64,000 bases of DNA from Candidatus Aminicenantes bacterium (GTDB taxonomy: Bacteria; Acidobacteriota; Aminicenantia; Aminicenantales; Aminicenantaceae): contig DRHQ01000083.1 of the NCBI GenBank assembly GCA_011049545.1, forward strand, positions 29,766-93,765, written 5' to 3'. A program made the position numbers and the translations under genes. Within the stretch, counting starts at the first letter, position 1; each line of letters opens with the position of its first letter. Positions 17,819 through 31,850 of this stretch are shown here, one piece after another. The notes below the pieces were generated by a model, which saw only the letters and a list, made by a program, of their open reading frames with translations, was not told the DNA's origin and searched no databases.

Positions 17819-18035
17819 TTTCCCTCCTTTTTTCTTATGAGAATGCCTATTTGCTTGTAACAATTAAACCTAACTTTACAATCCGTGTCAACTTGATTGT
17901 TGGTCATTCCATCTTATCTTATAATTGCCATTACGAGGAGGGAAGCGACGCGGCAATCTCAACCTGATTTTTTGAATTGACATCGCAAAATTTTTATCTG
18001 GTTATCAAATTAAAATAAGGATAAAATAATATCAG

Positions 18036-19759: not shown

Positions 19760-19788
19760 TTGACAACTTTTCCCTGTTTTGCTAAGAT
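19760..19788 (+). promoter_or_regulatory. Candidate sigma70 promoter for the tRNA-Pro/tRNA-Arg pair
   Basis: TTGACA(19760-19765)-N17-TAAGAT(19783-19788), about 80 bp upstream of tRNA-Pro. Confidence 0.4.
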
Positions 19789-19867
19789 TAACGGGGCCAA
19801 AAGCCAGGGCAAGAACGGGGACTGTTCCCTTTATCTCGCTTGGAATACACGCTCGTCTTACAAGTTT

Positions 19868-19942
19868 CGGGGAGTAGCGTAGCCTGGTTAGCGCGCCTGC
19901 TTTGGGAGCAGGAGGTCGTCGGTTCGAATCCGATCTCCCCGA
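19868..19942 (+). tRNA. tRNA-Pro (anticodon TGG)
   Basis: Manual fold: acceptor cggggag/ctccccg, D arm, anticodon stem cctgc/gcagg with loop ttTGGga, T arm gtcgg-ttcgaat-ccgat, discriminator A. No encoded CCA. Confidence 0.85.
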
Positions 19943-20011
19943 TTAAAACTTAAGACGGATAAAGGAACAATCGGATATAGAAGCCGATTGAGATAGAAAA
20001 ATATCAAGGAT

Positions 20012-20089
20012 GCGCCTGTAGCTCAGTCAGGATAGAGCAGCTGCCTTCTAAGCAGCGGGTCGGAGGTTCGAGTCCTTCCAGGCGTGCCA
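20012..20089 (+). tRNA. tRNA-Arg (anticodon TCT)
   Basis: Acceptor gcgcctg/caggcgt (G1·U72), anticodon stem gctgc/gcagc with loop ctTCTaa, T arm ggagg-ttcgagt-ccttc, encoded CCA. Confidence 0.8.
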
Positions 20090-20235
20090 CCCTTCCTCCT
20101 TATTTACCAATAGCTTTCCTTGGATTTTGATTTCATAGAGCCTATACTATTTTTAGTTTTTTTGACACAAAAATGTCAAAGGAGTGACAAATTCGACATC
20201 CCACTGTTACACGGGCTGATGTCTGGTTTTTTCTC

Positions 20236-20300
20236 ATTGACTTGAAACTTTTTCTTATGATATAAGTCAAAGAGTCACAGCTTAGGGACATCGTGAGCAA
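20236..20300 (+). promoter_or_regulatory. Repeated promoter + conserved leader module, copy 1 (TTGACt-N17-TGATATAAG-TCAAAGAGTCACAGCTTAGGGA)
   Basis: One of three near-identical modules (with 21192-21247 and 30104-30200), each ~120-150 bp after a tRNA or tRNA fragment and before an ORF. A possible 22-codon GTG-initiated leader ORF lies at 20293-20361. Confidence 0.45.
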
Positions 20301-20381
20301 CGCAAGAGGGAAGAACTTTTGCCTACATCATAAAGGCAGAATTCTATCTCCATATCTATAAACCAAAAAAGGAGGTATTTT

Positions 20382-20912
20382 ATGAAGAACAGAATTATCG
20401 TAGGAACAATTCTTTTTGCTTTTCTTCTTTCTGGAACTGTTTTTGCTCAAGAGAAAAAACAGAAAGTTGAAGCACCTCAATTAACAGTAGAGCAGAAATG
20501 GAAACGTGCTATGTCTAATCTGAATGCGATATTCATTGCAAGTATTGCCTATGCCAAATCTCAGGGAAAATCGCCATCACACTATGGTAAGTATATGGGA
20601 GAATTATTTGCGACAAGCTGGGAAGGAGTTAAAGGCGTAACAGATTTCATAGAGGCAATGCATTGGAATTGGCAAATGTGGGAAGATTTCCAGATTGAAG
20701 TCTTGGAAGAGTCTGAGAACTTTTATAAAGCGAAGATTAAAGGGATAGGCGAAAAATACATCACAGAAGGGTCGGAAGCAGGAGTCACATTAAACGAATA
20801 TTATGATTGCTGGGAACAACTTATGATGCCGATAACGAATTATTTAGGTCTGGAATACAAACAAAAAATAGAAGGAGATTGGATAGTATTTACAGTTAAA
20901 GAAAAGAAATAG
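20382..20912 (+). CDS. Hypothetical secreted protein (signal peptide)
   Basis: 176-aa ORF with a good RBS (AAAGGAGG). N-terminal signal MKNRIIVGTILFAFLLSGTVFAQ. No recognisable domain. Confidence 0.5.
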   Translation: MKNRIIVGTILFAFLLSGTVFAQEKKQKVEAPQLTVEQKWKRAMSNLNAIFIASIAYAKSQGKSPSHYGKYMGELFATSWEGVKGVTDFIEAMHWNWQMWEDFQIEVLEESENFYKAKIKGIGEKYITEGSEAGVTLNEYYDCWEQLMMPITNYLGLEYKQKIEGDWIVFTVKEKK

Positions 20913-21022
20913 ACACTCATAGCATACAAATCCAAGCCTTCCTGAGGTTGAGGATGCCAGGAAGAGGCTGGTTCCGTCCAGATCTTCTTATAAGCCCAAA
21001 GAAAAATAGGCTACGAAGGCCG

Positions 21023-21084
21023 AGCGGGTGGCTGTTAACCACTAGGTTGTAGGTTCGAGTCCTACCCGAGGAGCCATCTTTTTA
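21023..21084 (+). repeat. 3' fragment of a tRNA-Asn(GTT)-like gene (anticodon arm + T arm + acceptor 3' + CCA), direct repeat copy 1
   Basis: ggtgg-ctGTTaa-ccact…gtagg-ttcgagt-cctac-ccgagga-g-cca. No matching 5' acceptor or D arm upstream. ~95% identical to 29921-29982. Confidence 0.75.
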
Positions 21085-21191
21085 TGGGGTAAAAAGCTCT
21101 CGACTATTTAAGCAACCTTATCCGTAGTTAGGCAAGTTTAGGCATTTATTGACACACCACTGACACACAGGAATAGGTGTGTTTTTCTTGT

Positions 21192-21247
21192 TTGAATCTA
21201 ATTTTCCATTGTGAAATAAGTCAAAGAGTCACGGCTAGGGGAGCATA
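21192..21247 (+). promoter_or_regulatory. Repeated promoter + leader module, copy 2
   Basis: ttgaat-N16-gtgaaataag-tcaaagagtcacggctagggga, then the ATG of the 21248 ORF. Confidence 0.45.
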
Positions 21248-21691
21248 ATGAACCCAGCAAAGGAAGGAATCATGTTTGCCGCCCTTTACACTAAAAAGTG
21301 TATAAAGGAACAGGCACAAGATGAGCTTCAATATTTTCGTATGTATCCCACTGAAAGAGATGAAAGTGGGCGCACCATGTTGCTACCATTTGCATTCAAA
21401 GAGAGAGACTATTTCAATTGTCCAGAAAGAATGAAAGACGATGAGGTAAAAGTCGTAAAGGAGTATTCACCCCATCATGTATACACTTCTGACCCAAGAG
21501 AGTCATATCTAATTGACGAATGTAAATGGATTCCAACAGCAGACCAACTTAGGAAAGGTCTAGAAAGGATAGGTTATTCTATTGGAGATACTTCATATAT
21601 GAATGAAGAGCAAATACTTGATTTAATAATGAGAGAACGAAAAAAGATGAGGTGGAGTAGAGAAAAAGAAAACTGGGTAAAGGTTTTGTAG
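21248..21691 (+). CDS. Hypothetical protein
   Basis: 147-aa ORF with RBS AGGGGA. No recognisable domain. Confidence 0.5.
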   Translation: MNPAKEGIMFAALYTKKCIKEQAQDELQYFRMYPTERDESGRTMLLPFAFKERDYFNCPERMKDDEVKVVKEYSPHHVYTSDPRESYLIDECKWIPTADQLRKGLERIGYSIGDTSYMNEEQILDLIMRERKKMRWSREKENWVKVL

Positions 21692-21839
21692 AAGAGACTA
21701 TAATATACACCTACAATCGTAAACCCGTCGCTCCAGCGCACAATCTCACGACAAAACGACCTTCCTTGACTTCACGGATACCTGAGCATAAAATCATTTC
21801 GAGATTGTCAGTAATCAAAAGACTTAATGAGAAGGGGAG

Positions 21840-22280
21840 GTGAAAAAAATGGAACAACCCCTTTTAATATTACTTGGAGCATTATTAGCAATAGGAGGAG
21901 GTTTTATTAGCCAACACAACCAAAGCCGTCTTGATCAAAGGAGACAAGATAGAGAGTTTTTCCATCAGGCAGAAGAGATTTTAATTGAGATGCAGCCTTA
22001 TTTGGAAGAGGTCATGACTCCTCCTAGTAAAGAATTACATGAGTTAAGTAAAAAACTTCTTTATGCTGCTATGAGAATCAAAACAAAAGGCTATCTTGAC
22101 TTAGCATTAAAATTAGTTGAATTTGCTAGAATGGATGCCAAAAAGACTAAGGATGAAGCAATTAGTCTCATCCAGGAGGTTGCTGCGACAAGTAAAAGTG
22201 CGCTCGATATGCATCACAGAAAACGAAATGAAATTGTCAAAAAAGCCTGGGAAGAGCTAAAAAAGATTGGAAGGGGATAG
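21840..22280 (+). CDS. Hypothetical protein with N-terminal transmembrane helix
   Basis: 146-aa ORF with RBS GGGGAGG. TM segment LLILLGALLAIGGGFI, then a helical/charged region. Confidence 0.5.
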   Translation: MKKMEQPLLILLGALLAIGGGFISQHNQSRLDQRRQDREFFHQAEEILIEMQPYLEEVMTPPSKELHELSKKLLYAAMRIKTKGYLDLALKLVEFARMDAKKTKDEAISLIQEVAATSKSALDMHHRKRNEIVKKAWEELKKIGRG

Positions 22281-22474
22281 CGAAGAGAAGCATTGATTAA
22301 TACACTCCTAAAATTTAATAAATCTTTTGATCTCGATTTTTACTCCCTGCCTTTCAATACTCCCAATCTCGACTGGCGATCTGTGTCGCACGATGGGTAT
22401 TATGTAAACTTGCTACCTTGTAAAATGACCTTGAGAGCGGGAGAATAGATTATTGAGGGAAAAGGAGGGGGACA

Positions 22475-22620
22475 TGAAAAAACTTTGCATGATTATTCCT
22501 CTGATCCTGGTTCTATGTTTTATCGTCAGCTGTCAAAATCAGGAAGCAATGGCAGAGCTTGAAGAGATGAAGGCCCAGGCAGAGGTTGAGGAGCAGAATA
22601 AGGAAGTAATCGAAATTTAG
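22475..22620 (+). CDS. Possible small lipoprotein (48 aa), not in the ORF track
   Basis: ATG after AAGGAGGGGGA. MKKLCMIIPLILVLCFIVSCQNQ… has signal and lipobox features. Short and unverified. Confidence 0.3.
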
Positions 22621-22626
22621 TAAGAA

Positions 22627-24114
22627 ATGAGCGATATATATAGAAAGTTAGACAAAGTTTTCTTAGAACTAACTCAAGCCCTTTCTATCTATAGTAAATC
22701 AAAATTCTTGCAAGATTATTTTATAACTTCCTACATTTCATTTATATATGCAAATATTATTAAAAATTTTTTTATTAATTTGACAAGAGAGACTATAAAA
22801 AAATTAAATTTACCTAAAAGCCAAATAGGTGAAATCAAAAAAAAATATAAAGAAATACAGAAAGAAATAAATTTAGCAATATCTATTTCATTGAAGGGTA
22901 AAAAAATAGATGAAAAATATTACAGTAAATTTAAATCTAATATTAAAAAAGATTTCCCTGAATTTATAAAAATATTATCTACAGTTGAAAAAGAGATTAA
23001 AATTGCGAGGCTAAAGAAATTTATTAACAAAAAGAAAATAGAGATAAAAAGGGTAGGTCAAGATGAAGCAGATCTTCATAAAGATTTATTAACAAAAGCA
23101 TTAGAAGCGTATATTCAGGAAAAAAAAGAAATTCCGAGTATGATAAAAGTAAAAAACCTTATTAATACTATTGGAAGAGAAATCTTACCAAAATTTTCAG
23201 AAGCTTTAACGGCAGATCTTATTAAGGATAGACACGCGTTTTTATCAGATCAAAGAAAACTCCAAAAGGGATTTGAGACTCGATTATATGAAAGGTGGAA
23301 GGATCCTTTAGACCTCTTTGAATGCTTAATTCAAATTTCTTTAGAATCTGGAGAAAAACGTAAAAAAAAGTTAAATAATAAGAAAAATAATAAAAATAAT
23401 TCTAAATATGACGCGCTAATTAAACTTCATGCCAGAGCCTTACATATTTCTAACGAAATAGCTATTTTGCTGAAATCGGGTTATGCAGATGGTGCAAACG
23501 CCAGATGGAGGAGCCTCCATGAATTAGCTGTTATTTCTTTTTTCCTATGTGAAAATAATAATGATGCTTCAAAAAGATATTTAGAGCATAGCGTTATAAG
23601 AGCACTAAAAGAGGCAAAGGATTATAGAACCTATTATAAAAAATTGGGATATCCTCCTATAAAAAGAAAAGAGCTTCTGATGTTAGAAAAGGAAGCAGAG
23701 AGGCTATGCAAAAAGTATAGTGATAGATTTCAAGATGATTATGGTTGGATTCCCAGCTCCATATTAAAAGAAAGAAATTTTAAAGCTCTAGCACAATCTG
23801 TTAAGCTTGATAAATTACGTCCATACTATAACCTTGCTTGCGATTCTTCCCATGGAGGTTCAAAGGGGTTTTATAGACTTGGTTTAATGGATGATTCTCA
23901 AGACAAAATATTTCTTGTTGGTTCAAGTAATTATGGACTTGCTAGTCCTCTCCAAAATTCTGCTATTTCTTTATTACACGTTTCCTCTTGCTTATTAACT
24001 TTGGAGCCTGACTTTGAAAGCATTATACAAATATATGTGATGGGTAATTTTATGAACGAAATTTGTGATAAAGCAGTTGAAGTTCAAAGTAAGATTGAAA
24101 AGGAAACAGATTAA
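22627..24114 (+). CDS. Large Lys/Ile-rich hypothetical protein with a C-terminal HEPN-like R-x4-H motif (Abi-like candidate)
   Basis: 495-aa ORF in very AT-rich DNA. The C-terminal region has …GANARWRSLHELAV… (R-x4-H) inside a predicted helical domain. No other recognisable motif. Confidence 0.55.
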   Translation: MSDIYRKLDKVFLELTQALSIYSKSKFLQDYFITSYISFIYANIIKNFFINLTRETIKKLNLPKSQIGEIKKKYKEIQKEINLAISISLKGKKIDEKYYSKFKSNIKKDFPEFIKILSTVEKEIKIARLKKFINKKKIEIKRVGQDEADLHKDLLTKALEAYIQEKKEIPSMIKVKNLINTIGREILPKFSEALTADLIKDRHAFLSDQRKLQKGFETRLYERWKDPLDLFECLIQISLESGEKRKKKLNNKKNNKNNSKYDALIKLHARALHISNEIAILLKSGYADGANARWRSLHELAVISFFLCENNNDASKRYLEHSVIRALKEAKDYRTYYKKLGYPPIKRKELLMLEKEAERLCKKYSDRFQDDYGWIPSSILKERNFKALAQSVKLDKLRPYYNLACDSSHGGSKGFYRLGLMDDSQDKIFLVGSSNYGLASPLQNSAISLLHVSSCLLTLEPDFESIIQIYVMGNFMNEICDKAVEVQSKIEKETD

Positions 24115-24192
24115 TAGTAATTCTGCTTCTTTAATAATCATTATGTTAACTCGCTCCGTATGAAATGACCTTTATATATTTTAGGAGTAGAC

Positions 24193-24645
24193 ATGAGCAC
24201 AACTCAATTAATATTTCCTTGGTACCATAGGATAAGACATGTAGATTTAAAGAAAATAAAACACCCTACATCTTTGTTGGATTTTCAAGAATTATCATAT
24301 ACAGAAAGATATGATTCTCGATATTTTAAATATCTTAACTTGTCAAATAAGAAATTGTCTACAAACTGGCTAGACTCGTGGGAATCAATATTTGTAGTCG
24401 GTCCATTTATAGAAAGAAAACAGAAATATAATAAAATTCCGTTCATTGTCTTTATAACAGAGGGAAGCATTTATAGCCAATTGGTGGTTTTAAGCAGAAG
24501 ACTTGAGCTGCCTTATTATGAGTTCGGGATAATGCCAGATTTATATATATATCCTTCTAAGCTTCACAAATATTTCACTATGAAAAAGGATAAGCTTTGG
24601 CTTAGAACTGAAGCCGTTTCTATTAGACTTAAGAAAGGAGGATGA
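24193..24645 (+). CDS. Hypothetical protein, translationally coupled upstream partner of the HEPN-like ORF
   Basis: 150-aa ORF whose stop is 1 nt before the next ATG. No canonical nucleotidyltransferase G[SG]…D.D motif found. Confidence 0.5.
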   Translation: MSTTQLIFPWYHRIRHVDLKKIKHPTSLLDFQELSYTERYDSRYFKYLNLSNKKLSTNWLDSWESIFVVGPFIERKQKYNKIPFIVFITEGSIYSQLVVLSRRLELPYYEFGIMPDLYIYPSKLHKYFTMKKDKLWLRTEAVSIRLKKGG

Positions 24646-24646
24646 A

Positions 24647-25042
24647 ATGCCCAATCCAAACCAGTACAAAAAAATATCAGATAGATATCTAAATGCTTCG
24701 GATTTATTGGTTGATGATGTTCATGAGGCAGCAGGATTTTCTTTATATCATGCCTTTGAATCCATGGGAGCTGCATGGATAAGAACGAATGCTAGAGTTG
24801 TGCCTCATAGACATGAAAGCAAAATTAATATGTTCGTATCTTTAACGAGAGAAACTGGGCACAGAACTGGTATTGGGCTGGTAGGTATTTTATTAAACTC
24901 ATTGAGAAATAAGATGCTTTATCCAATTCCTGAAATTCCGTCAGGTTTTTCGATACCTCACATTAAATTCTCAGTCTCAGAAATAAAAAATTTGAGCCGA
25001 AGGGTAAAAGGTATTTTAAATATAATAAGACCTCTAATCTAA
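24647..25042 (+). CDS. HEPN-domain-like small protein
   Basis: 131-aa ORF. ASDLLVDDVHEAAGFSLYHAFESMGAAWIRTNARVVPHRHESKINMF follows the helical HEPN pattern (…A.DL…A..y.a.E…KA…p..H…L.). Confidence 0.45.
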   Translation: MPNPNQYKKISDRYLNASDLLVDDVHEAAGFSLYHAFESMGAAWIRTNARVVPHRHESKINMFVSLTRETGHRTGIGLVGILLNSLRNKMLYPIPEIPSGFSIPHIKFSVSEIKNLSRRVKGILNIIRPLI

Positions 25043-25059
25043 TTACTCAAGAATATTGT

Positions 25060-25560
25060 ATGGATAAAGATAGATTTCTTCGTGTTTTCAAGGAATCATT
25101 GGAAGTAATAACAGAAAAACGCTTCTTCTCATCTGAGCTAGGTTATCAAGGACAACTTGTATCTGAGCTAAATAAAAGATTAATAATGGAGTTGGTTTTT
25201 TCAAACAGGGCAGTCGTTGAGCAAGAATACCAAAAAAGATTGAAGGACCATGGTATCAGAATAAGGCCGGACATAATTATTCATGTCCCATACTCAGAAG
25301 GAATTCATTCCTCAAGGAAAGAAGATAATTACGTGGTTATCCAGCTAAAAAAGAACTCATCAAAAAAAGATGCTTTAGATGATTTAAAAAAAATTGACTT
25401 ATTATTTCAGAATTTAGATTATCCACTTGGTGTTTTTCTGAATATAGGTTCTGAGAAAAATTTTTATAGTTATTATTTAGGAGAATATAGAGATCGAATT
25501 CATTGTTTTGCAGTTCTATTGTCAGCAGAAGACAAGGTAATCATACACAAATCACCATAA
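25060..25560 (+). CDS. Hypothetical protein, possible PD-(D/E)xK nuclease-like fold
   Basis: 166-aa ORF 17 bp after the HEPN-like gene. Contains …E…RPDIIIH…VVIQLKK…, a weak E/PD/QxK arrangement. Confidence 0.45.
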   Translation: MDKDRFLRVFKESLEVITEKRFFSSELGYQGQLVSELNKRLIMELVFSNRAVVEQEYQKRLKDHGIRIRPDIIIHVPYSEGIHSSRKEDNYVVIQLKKNSSKKDALDDLKKIDLLFQNLDYPLGVFLNIGSEKNFYSYYLGEYRDRIHCFAVLLSAEDKVIIHKSP

Positions 25561-25647
25561 AACTTATTTGTCTAAGAGCTAATACCTCTAATGCTTTGCT
25601 ACCTTCTAAGATAAAGAGCCTAAAATAAAGATGGAAGTTTAGACAAG

Positions 25648-25700
25648 TGGAAGTCAAAAACCCTAAAGCCCTAGCTTCCCCGATTTCTGAAAAAGACAGT
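25648..25700 (+). repeat. Island hairpin motif family P5, copy A (GGAAG[CT]CAAA-N-CCTAAAGCC-YTRGCTTCCC-N-GAT[TT]GAAAAAG)
   Basis: Imperfect inverted repeat GGAAGCCAA/TTGGCTTCC followed by GATTGAAAAAG. Four copies, each 60-130 bp upstream of an ORF (25780, 28174, 31890, 32334). Confidence 0.7.
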
Positions 25701-25779
25701 AGAGCGAATTTAAAGCTAATTTCTCTTTCCCGGGAAGATTGTGCCGCACAATCGATATTATGTAAACTTATAAAAACCT

Positions 25780-26688
25780 ATGTCGAATCATAAAAAACAA
25801 CATTCTGTTCCCAAATGTTATCTCAGGGAATTTATTGACCCAGAAACTCCAGGTGGATATGAGCCTTTTATTTGGATTTTTGATAAAAACGGCAAGAACA
25901 AAAGAAAGAAGGCACCTAAAAATGTATTAACAAGTAACAATCTATACACTATTGAAGTCGAAGGGAAGGCTAGGGATTATTCTATTGAAAAAAGCCTCTC
26001 TTCTATTGAGAACGATTTTGCAATTTTGTTCAGACAGAAAATCAAAAATCTATTGCCATTATCAGAGGAGGAGCACATATCTTTGTGCATTTTTATAGCC
26101 ACTATGCTCCAGAGAACTGTTAGCCAGAAAGCTAATCTAGAACATTTCCTTGATGAGCTAATTTCACATGGCGAAAAATTAGCAGCACATCATGGAATTA
26201 AGTCGAGGACTGTTGAGAGCCTAAAAAACTACAAAAGAGATGCTCATAAACTCAATATTTTGAAGATGTTTCCAGAAGTGACTCAAATTTTATTAAATAT
26301 GAGCTTGGCATTCGTAATAGTGGGGAGAAGCAAATCTCGGTTTATTACCTCCGATGACCCATGCACCCTTTTTAATCCAAAATTAAGAGAGCAACGCCTT
26401 ATGGGTCCAGGATTGGGTCAGAAGGAAGTTGAATTGACTATTCCATTATCTCCTGAGATTGCACTCTGTTTGAGCTGGAGTAATTTTCGGGGATTTATTG
26501 AAATTGGAAAACGACAGATTGAAGAATTAAATAGAACAACGCGAGCCCATTGCTATGAACTCTTTATTTCCTCTAGTTCCCATAAAAAATTTAGATGGTT
26601 TTTAAAATACCCTTTGAGCCTAATTTTTGTCATGAAAGTTATCAGACAGAAGTTTAATTATAGAATTCATAGAAATTTTCACTCATGA
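25780..26688 (+). CDS. DUF4238-like protein
   Basis: 302-aa ORF whose N-terminus (HSVPKCYLREF) fits, to my recollection, the family signature H-x-V/I-P-x-x-YL-R/K-x-F. Preceded by a repeated tattatgtaaactt -10-like element. Confidence 0.55.
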   Translation: MSNHKKQHSVPKCYLREFIDPETPGGYEPFIWIFDKNGKNKRKKAPKNVLTSNNLYTIEVEGKARDYSIEKSLSSIENDFAILFRQKIKNLLPLSEEEHISLCIFIATMLQRTVSQKANLEHFLDELISHGEKLAAHHGIKSRTVESLKNYKRDAHKLNILKMFPEVTQILLNMSLAFVIVGRSKSRFITSDDPCTLFNPKLREQRLMGPGLGQKEVELTIPLSPEIALCLSWSNFRGFIEIGKRQIEELNRTTRAHCYELFISSSSHKKFRWFLKYPLSLIFVMKVIRQKFNYRIHRNFHS

Positions 26689-26697
26689 ATTCAAGTT

Positions 26698-27564
26698 ATG
26701 GCAAAAGAAGATAGATATTCACTCGCGTTATATTTAGCCTCTAAAGGCCAACTGGACAAAGCCTCATTCCTTCTGTGGAAGATAGTTGAGAAAACAAATA
26801 GTGCAGAGTTAATGCTGAACTCCATATTGGCTTTGGTTACTATGTTGGGGCGAAAAGAAAACAACGAAAAAATTATAAATCTATGTGATAAGGGAATTGA
26901 ACTCTCTTATAGACTCAATAATGAGAATGCCAAAGCATTTCTAATGGCGACTAAAGCTCTAAGCATAATAATTGAAGTCGAATTCAATCTACACAAGAAG
27001 AAGAATCTTGTTTTAGCACCGGGGTGGAAGGAATTTGCCTTGGAATCCATAAAGGAGGAGTTCACAGTCCTTACAAGAAAGATTGAGCAAAACCGGAGTG
27101 AATCACAACAATTGATAACTGAATCCTTCAAAGGAATCAGTTCAAGTCAAATTAGTGAAACACTAGCAGACGTTTTAATGATAAAAGGTGAATATCATTT
27201 TGATGAATACCTGAATTACAAAATAGAAAATATCAAAACTACAAAATTTAGACTGTTTCTAAAGAACGTCAGTAACATTGACTCTTTTCTTTATAATCAG
27301 AGTAGCCAAAAAACTACAAAAAGAATTTTAAAGGACTCAAAGAAGTGCATCATTGATGCAGCACAGATTTATAAGAATCTAGGAGATGAAATAAATCAAG
27401 CAAATGCTTATTTAAACTTAGCAAATCAAGCGATTTCGATAAATCGTAAAAAGGAAGCGAGGAAATATCTAAAAAAAGCAATTACTGAAGTTCAAAACAA
27501 TAAAAATTTGGAAATATTGAACAGAATTAGAAATTTGGAAGAACGATTAATGAAACATGATTAG
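26698..27564 (+). CDS. Hypothetical alpha-helical (TPR-like) protein, probably co-transcribed with the DUF4238-like gene
   Basis: 288-aa ORF 9 bp downstream of the previous stop. Repetitive helical hairpin pattern (…AYLNLANQAISINRKKEARKYLKKA…). Confidence 0.5.
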   Translation: MAKEDRYSLALYLASKGQLDKASFLLWKIVEKTNSAELMLNSILALVTMLGRKENNEKIINLCDKGIELSYRLNNENAKAFLMATKALSIIIEVEFNLHKKKNLVLAPGWKEFALESIKEEFTVLTRKIEQNRSESQQLITESFKGISSSQISETLADVLMIKGEYHFDEYLNYKIENIKTTKFRLFLKNVSNIDSFLYNQSSQKTTKRILKDSKKCIIDAAQIYKNLGDEINQANAYLNLANQAISINRKKEARKYLKKAITEVQNNKNLEILNRIRNLEERLMKHD

Positions 27565-28065
27565 TAGTATTGGAAATAGCACTTAGGAATATAACTCCCC
27601 GTTGGGGAATGTCATTTACAATGATTTAAGCGAAATGGAGACTCAACCATTTTGAAGTAGGTCCCCAATAAAGAAGCTTCAGTCCTTCGGTGTTTGGATG
27701 TTCAGATTGAGCTAAACATAGTAAAGAACACAAACTACTATACAAAGGTCACATATTAAAAGAAAAGCAATACTTCAGTTAGATCCATGCCCCATAATCA
27801 TATTCATCCCTGGATACTCCATTCTAATCTTCAGTTCTGAATATCCCTTCAACTTGTGATATAATATCCTCAAAAGTCCTTCATTCGGTTTGAAGGCGGC
27901 CTGAATAAGGCTCACTTCCGGTGAAGCCTTGGTGGCACATTTAAATAGCTGGTCCATTGTCCTCCAGGAACTTCTTACTTAATTCGTTTTTTTTGTACTA
28001 CAATTATGGCATTTTTTCAACATGGGGGATTTCCAAATTCTATACTAAAAAAATTTTAGGTAGAG

Positions 28066-28115
28066 CTTAAGCCAAATACCCTAAAGCCCTGGCTTCCCTA
28101 GATTGAAAAAGATAT
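28066..28115 (+). repeat. Island hairpin motif family P5, copy B
   Basis: aagccaaataccctaaagccctggcttccctagattgaaaaag. Confidence 0.7.
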
Positions 28116-28173
28116 CATTAAGGGTGGAAATTACCCTCAAGAACATAGACTGATTTTATAGGGGGACATTCTC

Positions 28174-29187
28174 GTGTTACTTTTTGATGACGGTTTATTT
28201 TCTCTTGATAGTCCGAAAGAGAGTTTTGCGGATGAAAGCTGGTCTGGAAATCTTTGGTATCGGACTAATGTAATTGCTCCTATAGAATCCCCTAAGGATT
28301 TAAGCTGGCTTTTTGAAATTGAACAAGAAGCAAGAAAGCTAGGTTATCTTGGAGAAGTAAAATCATATTTTGCTTATCAAATTATTATCCATTTAGATGT
28401 CAAAAGAAGAAATAGAATTTGGAGATTAATTCAAGATGTTCCTATTCTTATAATTGACCCAAAATATTATTTAAGAGAATTCGGAATAAAAATTATAAAT
28501 CAATACAGTTATTCATTTGAAATATATGGAGTAAAATTCCAAATAAATCGGTCAGACCAGATGTTTAAAAAATATGAAGAACTTCTTCAAGAATTATTAT
28601 CCCAGAGAGTACTCATTGATTCTCTTTTACCTGATTTAGAAAATGCCATAAGAAATATTTCAGCTCGCTATGATGTGTTTCCAGGCATATATGACTTCGA
28701 ACCGAAAAGAATATTGAAACAATTAAATTTCAAGAAACCAAAAAAGCAAATAATAAATGTTGTCAAACTCTCATCAAGGCTTCATAGCGCTTTTATTGAA
28801 CTGGGTGATAGAGATTCAATAAATTCTGCAATGGACGGATTATCATATTTTAAAATGGATTTACTGTTCCCATTATCTCACTTTTATAGGGATTTATTGA
28901 TTAAATCTATATCAAGAAACTGCTATTTTGATGAAGGTGACACGAAGTCCATTGAATTTATTAGAGGATTAATCAATAAAGTTAAGACTGGTTTAACTCA
29001 TGATATTTTTGGAAAATATTCGGCCATTCCAGAAGCAAAAATTGAAGAAATCAAATCTGAAGAAGATATAAGAATGCGCGCTTCAGATGTAATATCTGGG
29101 ATTGCCAGAATGATTTATGATTCTGAGGGGATAAGAGGTTTAAAGAACAAATTTTCTTATATATTTTTTAATGGTCGCAGAATATAG
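28174..29187 (+). CDS. Hypothetical protein
   Basis: 337-aa ORF with GTG start after AGGGGGAC. AT-rich, no recognisable domain. Confidence 0.5.
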   Translation: MLLFDDGLFSLDSPKESFADESWSGNLWYRTNVIAPIESPKDLSWLFEIEQEARKLGYLGEVKSYFAYQIIIHLDVKRRNRIWRLIQDVPILIIDPKYYLREFGIKIINQYSYSFEIYGVKFQINRSDQMFKKYEELLQELLSQRVLIDSLLPDLENAIRNISARYDVFPGIYDFEPKRILKQLNFKKPKKQIINVVKLSSRLHSAFIELGDRDSINSAMDGLSYFKMDLLFPLSHFYRDLLIKSISRNCYFDEGDTKSIEFIRGLINKVKTGLTHDIFGKYSAIPEAKIEEIKSEEDIRMRASDVISGIARMIYDSEGIRGLKNKFSYIFFNGRRI

Positions 29188-29484
29188 AATAAAGAAAATA
29201 TTTGGAAGGTATACACTTTACCCCAAGTATTTTGTTTGCCTTCTTTCCAGTTAATTGCACTCGTTCACTTTCTCATTCTATGTTTCTCGTTTGGGCAATA
29301 AAGCCAATCCTCAAGCCTTGAACATCAATCCACCCTGTCCCCAGGCGAAGGATTGCGTCGCATATCTATTATTATGTATACTACTATAACTCACATAATA
29401 TCAGTAAGTTGCGATGATTTAGATTTGAAATATTATCCCATTTTGGGCCAAAAAAAGGGGGTAAATTCCCGTTTTTCAAATAGG

Positions 29485-29575
29485 GGTGGCGTCTGACTGC
29501 GAATCAGAAGGTCGTCGGTTCGAATTCGATCTCCCCGATTAAAGCTTAAGACGGATAAAGGAACAATCGGATATA
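29485..29575 (+). repeat. tRNA 3'-fragment direct repeat (copy of tRNA-Pro T arm, acceptor 3' end and 37 bp of downstream flank)
   Basis: 29510-29575 matches 19914-19979 at 64/66 positions (…ggtcgtcggttcgaat[ct]cgatctccccgattaaa[ag]cttaagacggataaaggaacaatcggatata). It is preceded by an unrelated anticodon-arm-like hairpin and has no 5' tRNA half. Confidence 0.8.
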
Positions 29576-29659
29576 AAAATAAGTTCTTCCTGTCTTCTCA
29601 CCTTCAGCCAGATTTAGAGGGGTCTAAATGAATCTGATATTACCAAGCTCTGTAAGCCA

Positions 29660-29860
29660 TTACGGAATTACATCTTTAAACTTCTCTGAAGCAGGTTCTC
29701 CACCAATTCCCCAGTGTGATTTTTGGATTTCATGAATAATCACTTCTACAGCCTGAGTGGGAATCCCTAAATCTACAAAGACCTTAGTTATATTTTGGAT
29801 TGTGATTTTTGCTTTTTCCTGTCCGAAACCTTCCCAGACATTTACATGGATAACGGGCAT
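29660..29860 (-). CDS. Tautomerase family protein (4-oxalocrotonate tautomerase-like)
   Basis: 66-aa ORF starting MPVIHVNVWEG… with catalytic Pro1 after Met, at the typical tautomerase-family length. Confidence 0.6.
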   Translation of the reverse strand: MPVIHVNVWEGFGQEKAKITIQNITKVFVDLGIPTQAVEVIIHEIQKSHWGIGGEPASEKFKDVIP

Positions 29861-29920
29861 TTATTACCTCCAAAGTTTTGTTGATAATAATACTCTACTA
29901 TCTGGATTCTGAAAAATCAA

Positions 29921-29982
29921 AGCGGGTGGCTGTTAACCACTAGGTTGTAGGTTCGAGTCCTGCCCGAGGAGCCATCTTTTTA
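29921..29982 (+). repeat. 3' fragment of a tRNA-Asn(GTT)-like gene, direct repeat copy 2
   Basis: Same as 21023-21084 with one T-stem substitution (cctgc vs cctac). No 5' half present. Confidence 0.75.
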
Positions 29983-30103
29983 GGGGCCAGAGACAACCTC
30001 TCATTTACTCACCATTAGGCAATAGCGAGCAATTGTAGTCATTTTGTGTCATGCGGACGTCACCGGTCTATCACATGGCAGAAAACAGGTCATTATTACG
30101 TGG

Positions 30104-30200
30104 GCTTGACATTTGTCTTCCAACAATTGACCTCATTTTTTCCCTGTGATATAAGCCATAGAGAGTGTTAGCTTCAGCTAGTTGGTGGGATCGTTAATTC
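30104..30200 (+). promoter_or_regulatory. Repeated promoter + leader module, copy 3
   Basis: ttgacc-N17-tgatataag-ccatagagagtgttagcttcagctag, upstream of the 30276 ORF. Confidence 0.4.
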
Positions 30201-30275
30201 TGCTCCTGCTATTTTCATTAGGCTGATTTCACGAAAAATTAAATCTAGCTCAAAGATTAGGAGGGATAACCAGTA

Positions 30276-31760
30276 ATGAAGAAAAACTGGATGGCAGAAC
30301 TCACCTATCATTATGAAAAAACTCGGCGCCGATATCCTCAAGATCGGCTGATGATTCTTTTTGATATCGACGGTACAATTCTAGATATGCGCTATATGGT
30401 ATTTCATGTCCTGAAAGCCTTTGATAAAAAGCATGACACCCATTTTTTTCGAAAGCTTAATGTCTCTGATATTACTGTACACGAGAATCAAGTGGATAGT
30501 TTTTTAGCAGAGTTACGAATTCCATCAGAGGAACAGAGAGAGATCATAAAGTGGTATAATCAGCATCGCTGGTCTTCGGAGTATATCCTTCAGTCCCACC
30601 ATCCATTTTCTGGAGTGCTTGAGGTTATTCGATGGTTCCAACTCCAGCCAAATACCTTTGTTGGCTTGAATACTGGCCGGCCTGAATCAATTCTAAGCGA
30701 CACCTTGAGATCCCTGAATAAATTAGGTAAAGAGTATAAAGTTCAATTTAGTGATGAACTGTTGCGTATGAATCCTGGGGGCTGGGAACAAGAAGTAGAA
30801 AATTCGAAGGTTGCTGGAGTGCGCTATTTTCAAAAAAAAGGGTATCACATCTTCGCCTTTGTAGACAACGAGCCCAATAATTTGAAGGTGGTTTCCAATA
30901 TTGATCCAGATCAAGAAATTCTCCTACTTCATGCGAATACTATCTTCGAATCTAAAAGGACCAGATTACCTTCCCGTACGGTCAAAGGTAAAGCATACGA
31001 CATAACTGAACTAATTCCCGAGAAAGAACTGCCCCAGCATATTCAATTTGTTTGGCATGGTATAAACGACGAAGTGAACTTACGTCAATTTCTAGCTTCT
31101 GAGATTACTTGGGGGGAATGTGATGTTCGTATGGATCCCATAGCCAATGAGTTGATTCTTCGTCACGATTCCTTTGTAGAACTCCCTCTGGATGTAGACG
31201 AAGATTGGTTTAGTTTGGATCGTCTGCTCCATCGCTTGTTAAAAACAGGCAAGTCAATTAAGCTCGATTTAAAGTCAGGCGGTATTTTGGTAGATAAGGC
31301 TTTGAAATTCATTGAATCTTCCAGCTTTGATGAATCTCGCCTGTGGTTTAACGGCAATGTGGAAAGACTGCAAGAGCAAGGGTTCAGAAAATTAGCCAGT
31401 GCCCACCCCGATGCTATTTTGCAATGCCCTGTTGATTTTTTAGCTCCTCTGATTAGCAGTGCCCCAGAAAAAGCTCAGGAAATACTCGATATGTTTATAA
31501 AATGGGGTATCAACCGCTTTTCCATTAATTGGAAAACTCAGAACATGCGCAATTTCTTTGATCAGATGGATAAATGGGGATTTGAAGTCAATATTTACAA
31601 CGTTCCTGATTTAGAGTCATTCCTGGAGATGGTGCTTCTCATGCCGCGATCTATCACGTCCGATTTCAATTTTCCTAAATGGCATTATTATGGCAGAGGC
31701 TCAGGAGAAGATGGTAGCCATTATGAATATTCTATACGAAAGACGAAAGGAAGAAAGTAG
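30276..31760 (+). CDS. Fusion protein: N-terminal HAD-superfamily phosphatase domain + C-terminal GDPD/PLC-like phosphodiesterase (TIM-barrel) domain
   Basis: 494-aa ORF. Carries HAD motif I ILFDIDGTILD. The C-terminal half (FVWHGINDEVN…ECDVRMDPIANELILRHDSF) parallels the GDPD pattern H-R-G…E-N…E-x-D-V…H-D. Confidence 0.55.
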   Translation: MKKNWMAELTYHYEKTRRRYPQDRLMILFDIDGTILDMRYMVFHVLKAFDKKHDTHFFRKLNVSDITVHENQVDSFLAELRIPSEEQREIIKWYNQHRWSSEYILQSHHPFSGVLEVIRWFQLQPNTFVGLNTGRPESILSDTLRSLNKLGKEYKVQFSDELLRMNPGGWEQEVENSKVAGVRYFQKKGYHIFAFVDNEPNNLKVVSNIDPDQEILLLHANTIFESKRTRLPSRTVKGKAYDITELIPEKELPQHIQFVWHGINDEVNLRQFLASEITWGECDVRMDPIANELILRHDSFVELPLDVDEDWFSLDRLLHRLLKTGKSIKLDLKSGGILVDKALKFIESSSFDESRLWFNGNVERLQEQGFRKLASAHPDAILQCPVDFLAPLISSAPEKAQEILDMFIKWGINRFSINWKTQNMRNFFDQMDKWGFEVNIYNVPDLESFLEMVLLMPRSITSDFNFPKWHYYGRGSGEDGSHYEYSIRKTKGRK

Positions 31761-31802: not shown

Positions 31803-31850
31803 AGGAAGCCAAAGACATTAAAGCCTTGGCTTCCCTGGATTGAAAAAGGA
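31803..31850 (+). repeat. Island hairpin motif family P5, copy C
   Basis: ggaagccaaagacattaaagccttggcttccctggattgaaaaag (best palindrome of the family). Confidence 0.7.

Follow-up and report, generated by a model that had tools for sequence, protein, structure and literature searches.

Integron cassettes lack promoters of their own, have their attC hairpin sites at the 3′ end and rely on a neighboring intI/attI/Pc platform. In the Borrelia erp/ospEF-related lipoprotein loci, the upstream homology box is presumably a conserved promoter/operator block standing before unrelated lipoprotein genes on recombining replicons. Islander-type islands integrate into tRNA genes by means of tyrosine integrases, including by tandem accretion (PMC4383910). 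What defines the tycheposons of Prochlorococcus is a tyrosine recombinase and a replication module of their own, and the text that describes them gives no standard promoter-leader, the word "promoter" occurring in it zero times (bioRxiv 10.1101/2020.12.28.424599). Putative mobile promoters have mostly been described in families of two that move by means not known (PMC3575422), and bicistronic design (BCD) elements have a layout that makes expression less dependent on downstream sequence (PMC5995908, PMC8601185, PMC13285730).

We analysed three modules (M1, M2, and M3) in a 64,000-nt stretch of an Aminicenantes genome, hereafter the window, together with related copies elsewhere. The reading we favor is that they represent a portable expression-and-attachment module heading small gene cassettes stacked beside tRNA genes in Aminicenantes; the anatomy, copy number, fixed spacing, cargo diversity, tandem arrays, tRNA association, and breaks at tRNA fragments on which it is based were observed directly. 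As in Islander-type islands, the inserts of the window arrays lie between direct repeats formed by displaced tRNA 3′ fragments, an intact tRNA heads the array, the window island has a low GC content, inter-strain breaks lie at the fragment, and a repeat-rich arm adjoins the core; unlike those islands, the Aminicenantes units have no integrase inside or adjacent to them, are mostly single ~1-kb genes, place the same arm after many different tRNAs in both orientations, and all carry one common promoter-leader that runs up to the start codon of the cargo. The arrays also resemble tycheposon islands in being hypervariable, seeded at tRNA genes, and occupied by adaptive cargo (bioRxiv 10.1101/2020.12.28.424599), with scattered partial tRNAs tracing successive integrations in which newer elements push older ones inward; in contrast to tycheposons, neither a tyrosine recombinase nor a replication module was seen with the cassettes, and the phylum differs. 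Like integron cassettes, they form strain-variable arrays of mostly ~1-kb single-gene units with diverse cargo, each with a recombination-site-like sequence and no recombinase within; unlike integron cassettes, they have a 5′-terminal tRNA fragment as their site-like element, bring a promoter and a leader each, and were seen with no IntI platform. The Borrelia box is comparable to the module as a conserved block before genes that are not related; the two differ in organism and sequence, and the module has in addition a tRNA-fragment link and cassette arrays. Highly similar upstream regions before non-homologous genes, within and between genomes, recall putative mobile promoters and Correia elements (PMC3575422); the Aminicenantes family departs from the former in its dozens of copies, fixed start-codon junction, whole 5′ UTR, and tie to tRNA fragments, and from the latter in having no terminal inverted repeats. 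Finally, the order SD1, short ORF, embedded SD2, and a stop overlapping or abutting the gene start is that of synthetic BCD elements and natural uORF coupling (PMC5995908, PMC8601185, PMC13285730); unlike BCD, the putative Aminicenantes coupler is natural and variable, and 17 of roughly 30 short leaders end in TAAATG (n = 9) or in an ATGA overlap (n = 8), about 11 being in frame with the cargo.

The original prediction was of three copies of a promoter and leader, each downstream of a tRNA or tRNA fragment. All three were located where it had placed them, and the observation was borne out: a 17-nt degenerate pattern (TGWRATAAGYCAWAGAG) matched the window three times against 0.25 expected, with three or more matches in 0 of 100 shuffles, a 19-mer (AAGTCAAAGAGTCACRGCT) matched twice against 0.02 expected, and a tRNA piece precedes every module (tRNA-Arg(tct) for M1 and Asn fragments for M2 and M3). 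M1 and M2 can be aligned over ~95 nt, including a terminator-like hairpin and T-run just 5′ of the −35 element, whereas the M3 core gave a weak profile match (nhmmer, 19 bits) and its leader is not that of the family. Because the upstream arm of M3 is ~85% identical to the arms of other family members despite this weak core match, M3 is, judged from its sequence, a diverged member in which arm and promoter match and the leader is its own. The M3 arm proper, which extends to ~30085, shows this ~85% identity to the L081 arm and is followed by an extra TTGACA-containing segment; the M3 leader is conserved together with the 494-aa gene in L074, a related Aminicenantes MAG. Profile matches within the window were confined to the three copies, which lie in its tRNA-linked variable region, and the search found no module at the other ~45 genes. 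A sigma-70 scan of the window did not call the module sites because their −10 elements end in G, not T. The gene start predicted at 21248 had to be revised, since the first 24 nt of that ORF are conserved leader; the true start of cargo 2 is the ATG at 21272.

Searches beyond the window found further copies, with similarity extending past the −35 and −10 hexamers. An exact 19-nt pattern was present in 5 species-level genomes (MAG species) out of 185,579 searched and matched 56 metagenome contigs, 55 of them clearly homologous, and a profile search gave 76 matches with 59 distinct cores. The family thus has at least 59 distinct copies, from marine-sediment metagenomes and the five MAG species, and none on viral contigs. 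The organism is placed in Aminicenantes by an ortholog of 96% identity that bears this name, and L003 is an Aminicenantes MAG. In our judgment, the three window modules probably represent a portable unit that is specific to the lineage of uncultured Aminicenantes. Conservation reached its maximum, ~100%, over TGATATAAGTCAAAGAGTCAC, and a few copies (L031, L001, and L060) keep only the part from −10 onward.

The full unit is ~250 bp long. At its 5′ end is a tRNA or the displaced 3′ tail fragment of one; a repeat-rich arm comes next, then a small hairpin and T-run, then a promoter-like site, and finally a translation leader. A constant distance of ~10 nt separates the start of the arm from the CCA end of the tRNA; the arm has a conserved length of ~118 nt and contains phased direct repeats, three of TAG(G/T)CA, all in the same orientation, and two of CTGA(C/T)ACA 11 nt apart. 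The promoter-like consensus is TTGAAT or TTGACA, 17–18 nt, and TGnTATAAG, in which the −10 hexamer is without the usually critical final T; we regard it as a putative extended −10 sigma-70-type promoter. Its leader contains the nearly invariant TCAAAGAGTCAC, SD1 (GGGGGA), an AUG conserved in 55–58 of 59 copies, and a second SD (AAGGAGGGA); two more AGTCA repeats lie in its almost invariant first 16 nt. The prediction of a promoter and leader unit upstream of unrelated first genes was upheld, as the unit is conserved, oriented, and at a fixed distance from them, with 48–53 nt (short leader) or 109–121 nt (long leader, with hairpin) between leader start and cargo start codon. The features of the window are collected in Table 1.

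Table 1. Features of the three modules and their surroundings in the window
Feature	Position	Strand	Remarks
Promoter-like site 5′ of tRNA-Pro	19760..19788	+	TTGACA, 17 nt, TG + TAAGAT; context only
Intact tRNA-Pro(tgg) and tRNA-Arg(tct)	19867..20089	+	19867-19943 and 20012-20089; chromosomal anchor of the cassette array
M1 arm	20090..20236	+	Atypical type; GACA/GTTACAC-type repeats; small hairpin and T-run 20212-20234 just 5′ of −35; orthologous to L057
M1 promoter-like site	20237..20266	+	TTGACT 20237-20242, 18-nt spacer, TGa+TATAAG 20258-20266, then TCAAAGAGTCACAGCTTAGGGAC
M1 long leader	20267..20381	+	Holds invariant TCAAAGAGTCAC
M1 uORF	20293-20361	+	GTG start, 22 codons; inside M1 long leader
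M1 leader hairpin	20308-20351	+	First SD-like GGGAAG paired with UCUAUCUCC
M1 leader SD	20370-20375	+	A-rich spacer, SD AGGAGG
Cargo 1	20382..20912	+	176 aa, signal peptide, no Pfam family
3′-end remnant of unrelated cargo gene	20940..21003	+	..GGCTGGTTCCGTCCAGATCTTCTTATAAGCCCAAAGAAAAATAG similar to L035 cargo end; looks like a scar left by an earlier cassette
Displaced tRNA-Asn(gtt) 3′ fragment 1	21023..21076	+	Anticodon arm to CCA
M2 arm	21077..21191	+	Alpha type; GGGGTAAAAAG.., TTAGGCA-agt-TTAGGCA, TGACACA-ccac-TGACACA, hairpin and T-run 21162-21190
M2 promoter-like site	21192..21220	+	TTGAAT 21192-21197, 17-nt spacer, TGa+AATAAG 21212-21220, then TCAAAGAGTCACGGCTAGGGGAG
M2 short leader	21221..21271	+	TCAAAGAGTCACGGCT, SD1 AGGGGAG, upstream AUG 21248 (in frame with cargo start, no intervening stop), SD2 AAGGAAGGA
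Cargo 2	21272..21691	+	139 aa, no Pfam family; first gene of low-GC island
Remainder of low-GC island	21692..29920	+	32-35% GC vs ~43%
DUF5677 and DUF4238 proteins	within 21692..29920		Island content
Chimeric tRNA fragment	29489-29578		Within low-GC island
Tautomerase gene	29660-29860	−	Within low-GC island
Displaced tRNA-Asn 3′ fragment 2	29921..29974	+	97% identical to fragment 1; breakpoint relative to L040/L006
M3 arm	29975..30126	+	Gamma type; TAGGCA-a-TAGCGA..TAGTCA, then GTGTCAT..ACGTCAC
M3 promoter-like site	30127..30155	+	TTGACC 30127-30132, 17-nt spacer, TGa+TATAAG 30147-30155, then CCATAGAGAGTG
M3 leader	30156..30275	+	Unlike family leader
HAD-like gene 3′ of M3	30276..31760	+	494 aa

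A tRNA T-arm lay within 300 nt of 23 of 47 copies, compared with 7% expected (about 7-fold enrichment), at a fixed distance of ~155 or ~187 nt; the clusters span 143–188 nt in the same orientation and 185–199 nt in the opposite one. Further copies adjoin degenerate or chimeric tRNA fragments, for example one in which an Asn anticodon arm is fused to an acceptor end of Arg or Leu/Ser type, and about a third have no tRNA piece nearby (e.g., L022 and L050). Overall, the copies are strongly associated with tRNA 3′ ends or fragments. At their 5′ ends the fragments have differing limits, and a conserved second (P) arm was not visible. The units are mostly ~1-kb single-gene cassettes in tandem next to tRNA genes; arrays of fragment, module, and gene, repeated with a period of 0.75–1.6 kb, occur in L051, L040, L006, L046, L001, L020, and the window. 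At the locus with the tautomerase gene and Asn fragment, there are no cassettes in the window, one in L006, and two in L040, whole ~0.9-kb cassettes being present or absent. L006 and L040 are 100% identical from the fragment end onward and unrelated before it, the window and L040 are ~95% identical up to the Asn fragment and diverged beyond, and the breakpoints among these three genomes at one chromosomal locus fall inside the tRNA-Asn fragment. Strain differences that break exactly at a tRNA fragment would be expected of an integrative element's end. The predicted integrative-element end is therefore supported by the tRNA association and these breaks; however, no integrase was found and the units are ~1-kb tandem cassettes, not classical islands. 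Cassette gain and loss between direct repeats of ~170 nt can equally result from ordinary homologous recombination, with insertion and deletion indistinguishable. Mosaicism was also seen: orthology between M1 and L057 extends from tRNA-Arg to GCTTRGGGAC, beyond which leader type and cargo differ, and in L053 an identical promoter of 75 nt is combined with a different tRNA and a different cargo.

The 58 distinct downstream ORFs fell into ~32 families unrelated to each other, and mostly encode exported proteins. The same cargo was found behind short or long leaders and different arms (L004, L051, and L058; likewise window M2 vs L038/L046 and L081), and distant homologs outside the lineage (L076 and L078) are without the module. 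We consider it probable that the module supplies transcription and translation start signals to any gene placed behind it. Part of its spread could be due to gene duplication because many cargo proteins are paralogous SnoaL-like lipoproteins sharing a signal peptide. One alternative agrees with our explanation on regulation and differs only on how the module spread, namely that it is the shared promoter/operator of a regulon of mostly envelope and exported-protein genes, with one regulator binding the AGTCA/TAGGCA repeats, which spread by duplication and homologous recombination while the tRNA fragments were bystanders of an island hot spot with no dedicated mobility. We find this doubtful. 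In its favor, near-100% conservation of +1 to +16 (TCAAAGAGTCAC) exceeds what a promoter needs and is operator-like, and the arm has the AGTCA-type motif three times over, always in one orientation. Signal peptides or membrane helices are present in ~70% of the cargo proteins, and the SnoaL-like lipoproteins, 21 of the 58, have signal peptides that are nearly identical. M3 and its gene retain the promoter in a genome without an adjacent tRNA fragment, and the lack of a recombinase in the window or beside the arrays also fits. A regulon does not account, however, for some 30 unrelated cargo families that include cytoplasmic proteins, or for the fixed distance to the tRNA 3′ end and the enrichment of tRNA pieces; the breakpoints exactly at the fragment, the chimeric fragments, and the presence or absence of whole cassettes likewise argue against it.

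The leader was also predicted to be a shared regulatory RNA, and could in principle act chiefly as a cis-regulatory RNA or leader-peptide attenuator, in which ligand sensing, or ribosome stalling on a short ORF (MNPARR.. or M.NARGKNFCLHHKG..SPYL), switches the downstream SD. This is quite improbable as the main function. The leader had no Rfam family match even at E up to 5, RNAalifold gave no consensus structure for its proximal 47 nt, and a GCUGG/CCAGC stem there was not significant. What stood of the prediction is the long-form hairpin, which pairs the first SD-like GGGAAG with UCUAUCCCC and was 92% paired compared with 48–67% in slid controls; four pairs have double changes, some compensatory changes are present, and the covariation score, reached by only 4 of 500 shuffles, is modest. 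The AUG and SD1 are conserved, which speaks for this reading; against it, the uORF is in differing frames in the leader subtypes, and its first six codons show no codon-position bias (56/49/51 mismatches). The predicted 22-codon leader ORF of M1 has its frame and stop kept in 5 of 6 related copies, with 80 synonymous vs 121 non-synonymous codon differences, only a mild coding signature. The cargo functions have no common theme for one ligand, and the arm and tRNA association would be left unexplained.

No integrase or recombinase gene was found in the window or beside any array examined, and the sole tyrosine integrase seen, in L043 beside tRNA-His, has an att site without the module arm. A transposon end or MITE-like mobile promoter (Tn7-like or CRISPR-associated homing 3′ of tRNA genes, or a Correia-type repeat), with the arm repeats as transposase-binding sites, would suit the constant arm start, the several phased same-orientation repeats, and the occurrence of the arm beside reversed tRNA fragments too, but is the least credible reading, as the inverted repeats of the region include no partner end, an informal reading of copies turned up no target-site duplication, the window and the locus ORFs checked contain no transposase or Cas genes, the duplicated segments are tRNA 3′ fragments of 50–66 nt, as site-specific integration but not transposition typically leaves, and on its 3′ side the unit is bounded by the start codon of the cargo instead of a terminus.

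We propose, returning to a portable module that heads small cassettes, that an att-like recombination core is provided by the displaced 3′ fragment of a tRNA or, at the head of an array, by the intact tRNA, and that the arm repeats may bind the arm-binding domain of a recombinase or a regulator. The hairpin and T-run would insulate the promoter from tRNA read-through, and the extended −10 sigma-70-type promoter would transcribe the cargo through the standard leader, in which SD1 and the AUG would open a short uORF with SD2 (AAGGAGGGA) embedded in it. In the short form, where SD2 lies 4–8 nt before the cargo start codon, the uORF would stop on the cargo start, overlap it, or run in frame into the cargo, making it a natural counterpart of the translational coupler known as "bicistronic design". 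The long form has its uORF stop 13–30 nt before the cargo start; here the hairpin would sequester SD2, and a third SD after the A-rich spacer would serve the cargo. A presumed enzyme would recombine the tRNA fragments, and also the conserved module, so that cassettes are gained, lost, and reshuffled. As a separate observation, the site 5′ of tRNA-Pro indicates that extended −10 sigma-70-type sites do occur in the Aminicenantes genome of the window.

Search of the window with the shared patterns returned three matches where 0.25 were expected and two where 0.02 were expected, and the copies behind tRNA-Arg (M1) and behind the first tRNA-Asn fragment (M2) were also alike over about 40 nt upstream of the −35 element, including a terminator-like hairpin and a T-run. 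These results confirmed the original prediction that a promoter and leader are repeated three times after tRNA pieces, the third copy (M3) following the second Asn fragment. Each promoter-like site lies 118-155 nt past its tRNA piece and is followed by an ORF on the same strand; downstream of the M1 and M2 sites is TCAAAGAGTCAC(A/G)GCT(T)AGGG, and downstream of the M3 site is CCATAGAGAGTG. The two Asn fragments are 97% identical and flank an island of low GC content (32-35% between the fragments vs about 43% around them) encoding a DUF5677 protein, a DUF4238 protein, a TPR protein and several ORFs without a family; no intact tRNA-Asn occurs anywhere in the window, although the island is flanked by Asn fragments. 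When the whole 64-kb window was searched with a core profile, nothing matched outside the tRNA-linked region with its three copies. By this search the module is absent from the roughly 45 housekeeping genes of the window, and therefore it is not simply the consensus promoter of the organism.

Positions of tRNA pieces, module elements and neighboring features in the window
Feature	Position	Remark
SnoaL-like lipoprotein genes	16798-17863	minus strand
tRNA-Pro promoter	19760-19788	extended −10 style
tRNA-Pro	19867-19943	downstream of mutL
tRNA-Arg(tct)	20012-20089	downstream of mutL
M1 promoter-like site	20237-20266	TTGACT-18-TGaTATAAG
22-codon ORF of M1	GTG 20293 to TAA 20361	
Long-leader hairpin of M1	20308-20351	
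Cargo remnant	20940-21003	between cargo 1 and Asn fragment 1
tRNA-Asn(gtt) 3' fragment 1	21023-21076	anticodon arm to CCA
M2 promoter-like site	21192-21220	TTGAAT-17-TGaAATAAG
Low-GC island	21272-29187	
Third repeat family	22382-22411, 25740-25769, 29354-29383	
Truncated SnoaL-like lipoprotein copy	22453-22620	inside island
DUF5677 gene	22627-24114	
Second repeat family	25651-25693, 28069-28111, 31806-31848	
DUF4238 gene	25780-26688	
Chimeric tRNA piece	29489-29578	88% identical to 19893-19982
Tautomerase gene and Asn fragment	29660-29974	
tRNA-Asn(gtt) 3' fragment 2	29921-29974	anticodon arm to CCA
M3 arm proper	29975 to about 30085	
M3 promoter-like site	30127-30155	TTGACC-17-TGaTATAAG
494-aa HAD-like protein gene	30276-31760	

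The further copies that the original prediction had proposed looking for were found in number. The exact pattern TAAGTCAAAGAGTCACNGCT occurred in 5 of 185,579 species-representative genomes, one of them named Candidatus Aminicenantes, and in 56 metagenome contigs, all but one clearly homologous over 100-250 nt. The core profile, spanning −45 to +52 and run on 290 kb of collected sequence (loci given L numbers below), yielded 76 matches representing 59 distinct cores, often two per short contig. There was no sign of a phage-borne module, as the core patterns had no match on viral contigs. The exact protein encoded by the first gene behind M1 (cargo 1) was also present on marine-sediment contigs and in MAG GCA_011050515.1, in the window's strain only, and an exact-protein look-up of the 494-aa gene behind M3 likewise returned the same strain only. 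In the literature on Aminicenantes with islands or promoters we found no description of the module.

Extended −10 promoters of the sigma-70 type have a TTGACA-like −35 element, a spacer of 16-18 nt, and TGn joined to a TATAAT-like −10 element whose second base is A and whose sixth is T. The module consensus is TTGAAT or TTGACA, 17 nt (18 in M1) and TGnTATAAG; across the 59 copies conservation covers the −35, spacer and TG together with five −10 positions, the sixth being G. A simple sigma-70 scan did not call the module sites, whose −10 ends in G; the same scan called the tRNA-Pro promoter, which is of the same extended −10 style. Conservation in the 59 cores is about 100% from TGATATAAG through TCAAAGAGTCAC, approximately −12 to +16, a stretch that contains two further AGTCA repeats, and this exceeds what a promoter needs.

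The full unit runs, in order, from a tRNA or tRNA 3' fragment through an arm, a hairpin and the promoter-like site to the leader. The arm starts about 10 nt after the tRNA piece with (T)nATGGGGTAG and has a conserved length of about 118 nt. At least three sequence types of arm exist, alpha (window M2), beta (locus L049) and gamma (window M3, L081 and L034), and all share one layout, in which three TAG(G/T)CA-like repeats in the same orientation precede two CTGA(C/T)ACA-like repeats 11 nt apart. Between arm and −35 lies a short, variable hairpin with a GTCTG loop, in many cases with a T-run on its downstream side. Eight loci (L003 at 2353-2470, L007, L014, L018, L019, L025, L047 and L058) carry a variant, absent from the window, in which about 170 nt are inserted between arm and promoter; the insert holds a conserved long hairpin, GCGGGCUGAUGUCAGCAAAAGGGGGGUUGAUGGGAAC..CUCUCCAGCCCGC, without an Rfam match, which could be a structured RNA or a small gene.

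Association with tRNA 3' pieces, which the original prediction had proposed to check in further copies, was found in much of the family. A T-arm lay within 300 nt in 23 of the 47 copies with enough upstream sequence, compared with 7% expected from the T-arm density in the same data; both figures come from a relaxed T-arm detector, because a strict regular expression undercounts degenerate fragments. Distances were tightly clustered: same-orientation fragments lay 143-188 nt away, most of them at 154-157, and reversed ones 185-199 nt away. Inclusion of degenerate, truncated and chimeric pieces seen by inspection raised the tRNA-linked copies to about two thirds. Displaced 3' fragments like those of the window recur in L051, L040 and L009, while an intact tRNA precedes M1 (Arg) and the modules of L020 (Asn), L004 (Ala) and L034 (Met). 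In L051 the units are stacked in tandem (T-arm 455, module 580, ORF, T-arm 1264, module 1378, ORFs, T-arm 2438); in L040, L006, L046, L001, L020 and the window itself the units are stacked similarly, repeating every 0.75-1.6 kb. There is no second conserved arm before the fragments, and the 5' limits of the fragments vary. Several pieces are chimeric, which points to recombination within shared T-arm sequence. In L051 and L033 an Asn anticodon arm runs into the acceptor end of a tRNA of another kind, Arg or Leu/Ser-type. The chimera in the window, an Arg(ACG)-like anticodon arm followed by the T-arm, acceptor and 39-nt downstream spacer of tRNA-Pro, looks like the scar of another recombination event at the Pro-Arg tRNA pair. 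The remnant between cargo 1 and Asn fragment 1 comprises the last ~20 codons (..GWLRPDLSYKPKEK*) of a cargo of the L035/L001 family, and a C-terminal remnant of another gene type (..PEVEDA.KRLAGL..) recurs before the fragments in L001, L012 and L031.

Comparison of one locus, a tautomerase gene with its Asn fragment, in three genomes (the window, L006 and L040) showed 0, 1 or 2 cassettes past the fragment. The window continues with M3 and the 494-aa gene; L006 has a single cassette of alpha arm, module and 'MTIQKF' cargo; and L040 has a cassette of about 0.9 kb (arm, module and a 167-aa SnoaL-like cargo), then a longer second Asn fragment and the MTIQKF cassette. As far as the end of the Asn fragment the window and L040 share about 95% identity, and beyond it they diverge, whereas L006 and L040 are unrelated before the fragment end and 100% identical from it onward, indicating that whole cassettes bounded by tRNA fragments have been gained or lost. 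Such changes, lying between direct repeats of about 170 nt, could have come about by ordinary homologous recombination. Exchange has occurred within the conserved core as well: M1 and L057 share an orthologous stretch that begins at tRNA-Arg and reaches GCTTRGGGAC, beyond which leader type and cargo differ, and L053 has the identical 75-nt promoter with a different tRNA, arm and cargo.

M3 gave only a weak core match (19 bits in the profile). Its arm proper shares about 85% identity with the arm, of gamma type, in L081, a locus with the family core and an M2-type cargo, and its promoter and own leader both accompany the 494-aa gene in conserved form in L074, a related Aminicenantes MAG in which no tRNA fragment is adjacent. 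By this likeness and this conservation, M3 is an older, diverged family member that would now be the resident promoter of the 494-aa gene. The 494-aa protein has a 96%-identical ortholog named Aminicenantes, which identifies the organism of the window as belonging there too. It has 1630 homologs at E <= 1e-20, and the 120 best listed are 62-79% identical, the few named ones coming from MAGs labelled Planctomycetota, Anaerolineae, Calditrichaeota, Oscillatoria and Desulfobacterales, a cross-phylum conservation unusually high for a protein with such faint Pfam matches. Three independent assemblies of the window's strain (L070, L072 and L073) end 340-345 nt upstream of this gene, at the Asn fragment/arm repeat, which fits assembly breaks induced by repeats or strain variation at cassette boundaries.

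The ORFs behind the modules were, as predicted, unrelated: 58 distinct downstream ORFs fell into about 32 families, the largest (21 members) being SnoaL/NTF2-like lipoproteins. Signal peptides or membrane helices occur in about 70% of the cargo, and clearly cytoplasmic proteins are also among it. The spacing to the cargo start codon is fixed: with the T of TCAAAGAG as origin, it is 48-53 nt for short leaders and 109-121 nt for long ones. Behind the long leader of M1, the cargo is a secreted protein of 176 aa that belongs to no Pfam family. The leader of M2 is short; its ORF had been taken to start at 21248, but the first 24 nt are conserved leader, and orthologs in L038, L046 and L081 begin at the ATG corresponding to 21272. 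One cargo family (L004, L051 and L058) stands behind short or long leaders with different arms and tRNAs, and the M2-type cargo likewise has different contexts in the window and in L046 and L081. The module is missing from more distant homologs of the M2 cargo (L078) and of the 494-aa gene (L076), indicating that it is attached to genes once these have arrived in this lineage. L078 lies in a defence island with an SduA_C (Shedu-type) protein and restriction-modification genes; the homolog in L081 has a TIR protein, a prohead protease and a large serine recombinase in its neighborhood. Just outside the window's array are SnoaL-like lipoprotein genes that have the signal peptide of the commonest cargo family (MKKLLMVIPLVILLCF..C) and no module, and a truncated copy lies inside the island.

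Beyond its near-invariant start, the leader continues with GCTGGGGGAC, an SD-like site, followed by AAA-ATG-AATCCAGC and then AAGGAGGGA. An AUG at +26, 4 nt past GGGGGA, is present in 55-58 of the 59 copies. In the short leaders (about 30) it opens an ORF, MNPARR.., which closes with TAA-ATG in 9 copies, shares an ATGA overlap with the cargo start in 8, and reads on in frame through the cargo start in about 11, window M2 among them; it thus stops on or overlaps the cargo start in 17. In long leaders, including M1, it usually ends 13-30 nt upstream. We define a bicistronic coupler as SD1 and a short ORF that contains SD2 and ends on or overlaps the downstream start codon. The layout, present in those 17 short leaders, is that of synthetic bicistronic designs (PMC5995908, PMC8601185), with SD1, short ORF and SD2, and of natural coupled uORFs (PMC13285730), and would make them putative couplers. 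The leader peptide does not appear to be conserved as a peptide, with mismatches of 56/49/51 by codon position and frameshifts separating the leader subtypes. The 22-codon ORF noted originally in M1 gave a mild signal: its frame and stop are kept in 5 of 6 related 'type II' leaders, with 80 synonymous vs 121 non-synonymous codon differences, which is only suggestive of coding conservation.

A structure scan of the leader, as the original prediction had proposed, supported a hairpin in the long form but no structured RNA in the proximal leader. The hairpin pairs GGGAAGAA..UGC with GCA..UUCUAUCCC; it was 92% paired, compared with 48-67% when the partner was slid, both sides had changed in four pairs, and the covariation score was reached by 4 of 500 shuffles, a modest support. 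It would sequester the first SD-like site, leaving an A-rich spacer and a new AGGAGG to serve the cargo. The proximal 47 nt matched no Rfam family and had no consensus structure by RNAalifold. A proximal GCUGG/CCAGC stem, plausible on inspection, was rejected as a conserved structure: RNAalifold predicts none, 80% of cells pair, and covariation was no better than in controls.

On balance we think it probable that the module is a portable expression-and-attachment unit heading small cassettes, which build up at tRNA genes. Its recombination end would be marked by the tRNA fragment with the arm, the promoter and two-SD leader would make any first gene expressible, and the conserved module could double as a homology handle for shuffling. 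That the copies are ends of integrative elements, as first proposed, agrees with the breakpoints at tRNA fragments between genomes, but no integrase was found in the window or beside the arrays. No recombinase was recognised among the window's ORFs read by eye or by Pfam searches of ten ORFs of 20.4-29.2 kb, including the island. Scans of the ten largest locus ORFs gave one tyrosine integrase (L043, 955-2334), beside tRNA-His and without an arm of the module family; the large serine recombinase of L081 lies about 9 kb downstream of the module, where the contig ends and no link can be drawn. Displaced tRNA 3' fragments are shared with tRNA-targeted islands (PMC4383910), whose integrase gene, usually beside one att site, we did not find in the cassettes, and partial tRNAs scattered in an island with tycheposons (10.1101/2020.12.28.424599), which integrate at specific tRNAs and whose own tyrosine recombinase and replication/packaging module were not found in the window or loci. 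Integrons are alike in array form, but their intI/attI/Pc platform, promoterless cassettes and attC hairpins are not those seen here, where each cassette has its own promoter-like site and 5' tRNA fragment and no 3' attC. It is nevertheless a tentative possibility that Aminicenantes have an integron-like capture system, in which circularisable cassettes would use the tRNA 3' fragment and arm as recombination site with a recombinase encoded elsewhere, each bringing a standard promoter and bicistronic coupler by which a captured gene would be expressed at once.

The main rival, which we consider rather unlikely though conceivable, is that the module is the control region of a regulon, spread by duplication and homologous recombination, with the AGTCA repeats as operators and the regulatory part kept. 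A riboswitch or attenuator is improbable and fits the data poorly: Rfam 15 returned tRNAs alone at gathering score and nothing meaningful under permissive cutoffs, E ≤ 5 for the window and E ≤ 1 for five loci. A transposon end, which also fits poorly, or a MITE/Correia-like repeat is most improbable, there being no inverted partner of the module in 19-32 kb, a unit that ends at the cargo start codon, and no target-site duplication noticed in the copies read.

In the Nijveen/Matus-Garcia definition, which uses a −150 to −50 window, putative mobile promoters share 80% identity or more across 50 nt or more upstream of non-paralogous genes (PMC3575422). Within the window M1 and M2 are 72% identical over 61 nt ungapped; between contigs, M1, L053 and L057 reach this level, being identical over about 75 nt before three unrelated cargos. 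By these alignments the module appears to be a large and well-delimited case, but those described (PMC3575422) lack its fixed start-codon junction and its physical link to tRNA fragments. If the portable-unit reading is correct, the cassettes show the way in which a globally common, uncultured sediment phylum assembles its accessory genome and has it expressed, as strings of one-gene cassettes at tRNA genes behind a natural standard expression part that precedes arbitrary genes, and they join tRNA-targeted integration, mobile promoters and uORF-mediated translational coupling, which are usually treated apart. If the spread reflects homologous recombination and regulon control only, the family is more ordinary, yet still an unusually large and well-defined set of mobile promoters. 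In practice, a 55-nt signature flags accessory cassettes in Aminicenantes MAGs, and a phylum without genetic tools gains a portable promoter and RBS as candidates.

Two other repeat families occur in the region. The second, AAGCCAAAnACCCTAAAGCCCTGGCTTCCC..ATTGAAAAAG with core AAAGCCYTGGSTYCC, has three copies in the window and others in L008, L012, L018, L020, L028, L030, L037, L041 and elsewhere; it usually lies shortly past stop codons, was found on 10 contigs of other samples and strains, some with two copies, and may represent, in these same genomes, a REP-like element or one resembling a 3' terminator. The third, TGYGYCGCA-N7-ATTATGTAAACTT, lies just upstream of ORFs of the low-GC island, had exact matches in contigs of the same strain only, has a similar sequence in L074 (TGCGTCGCATATCTATTACTACGG), and could be another shared promoter or operator.
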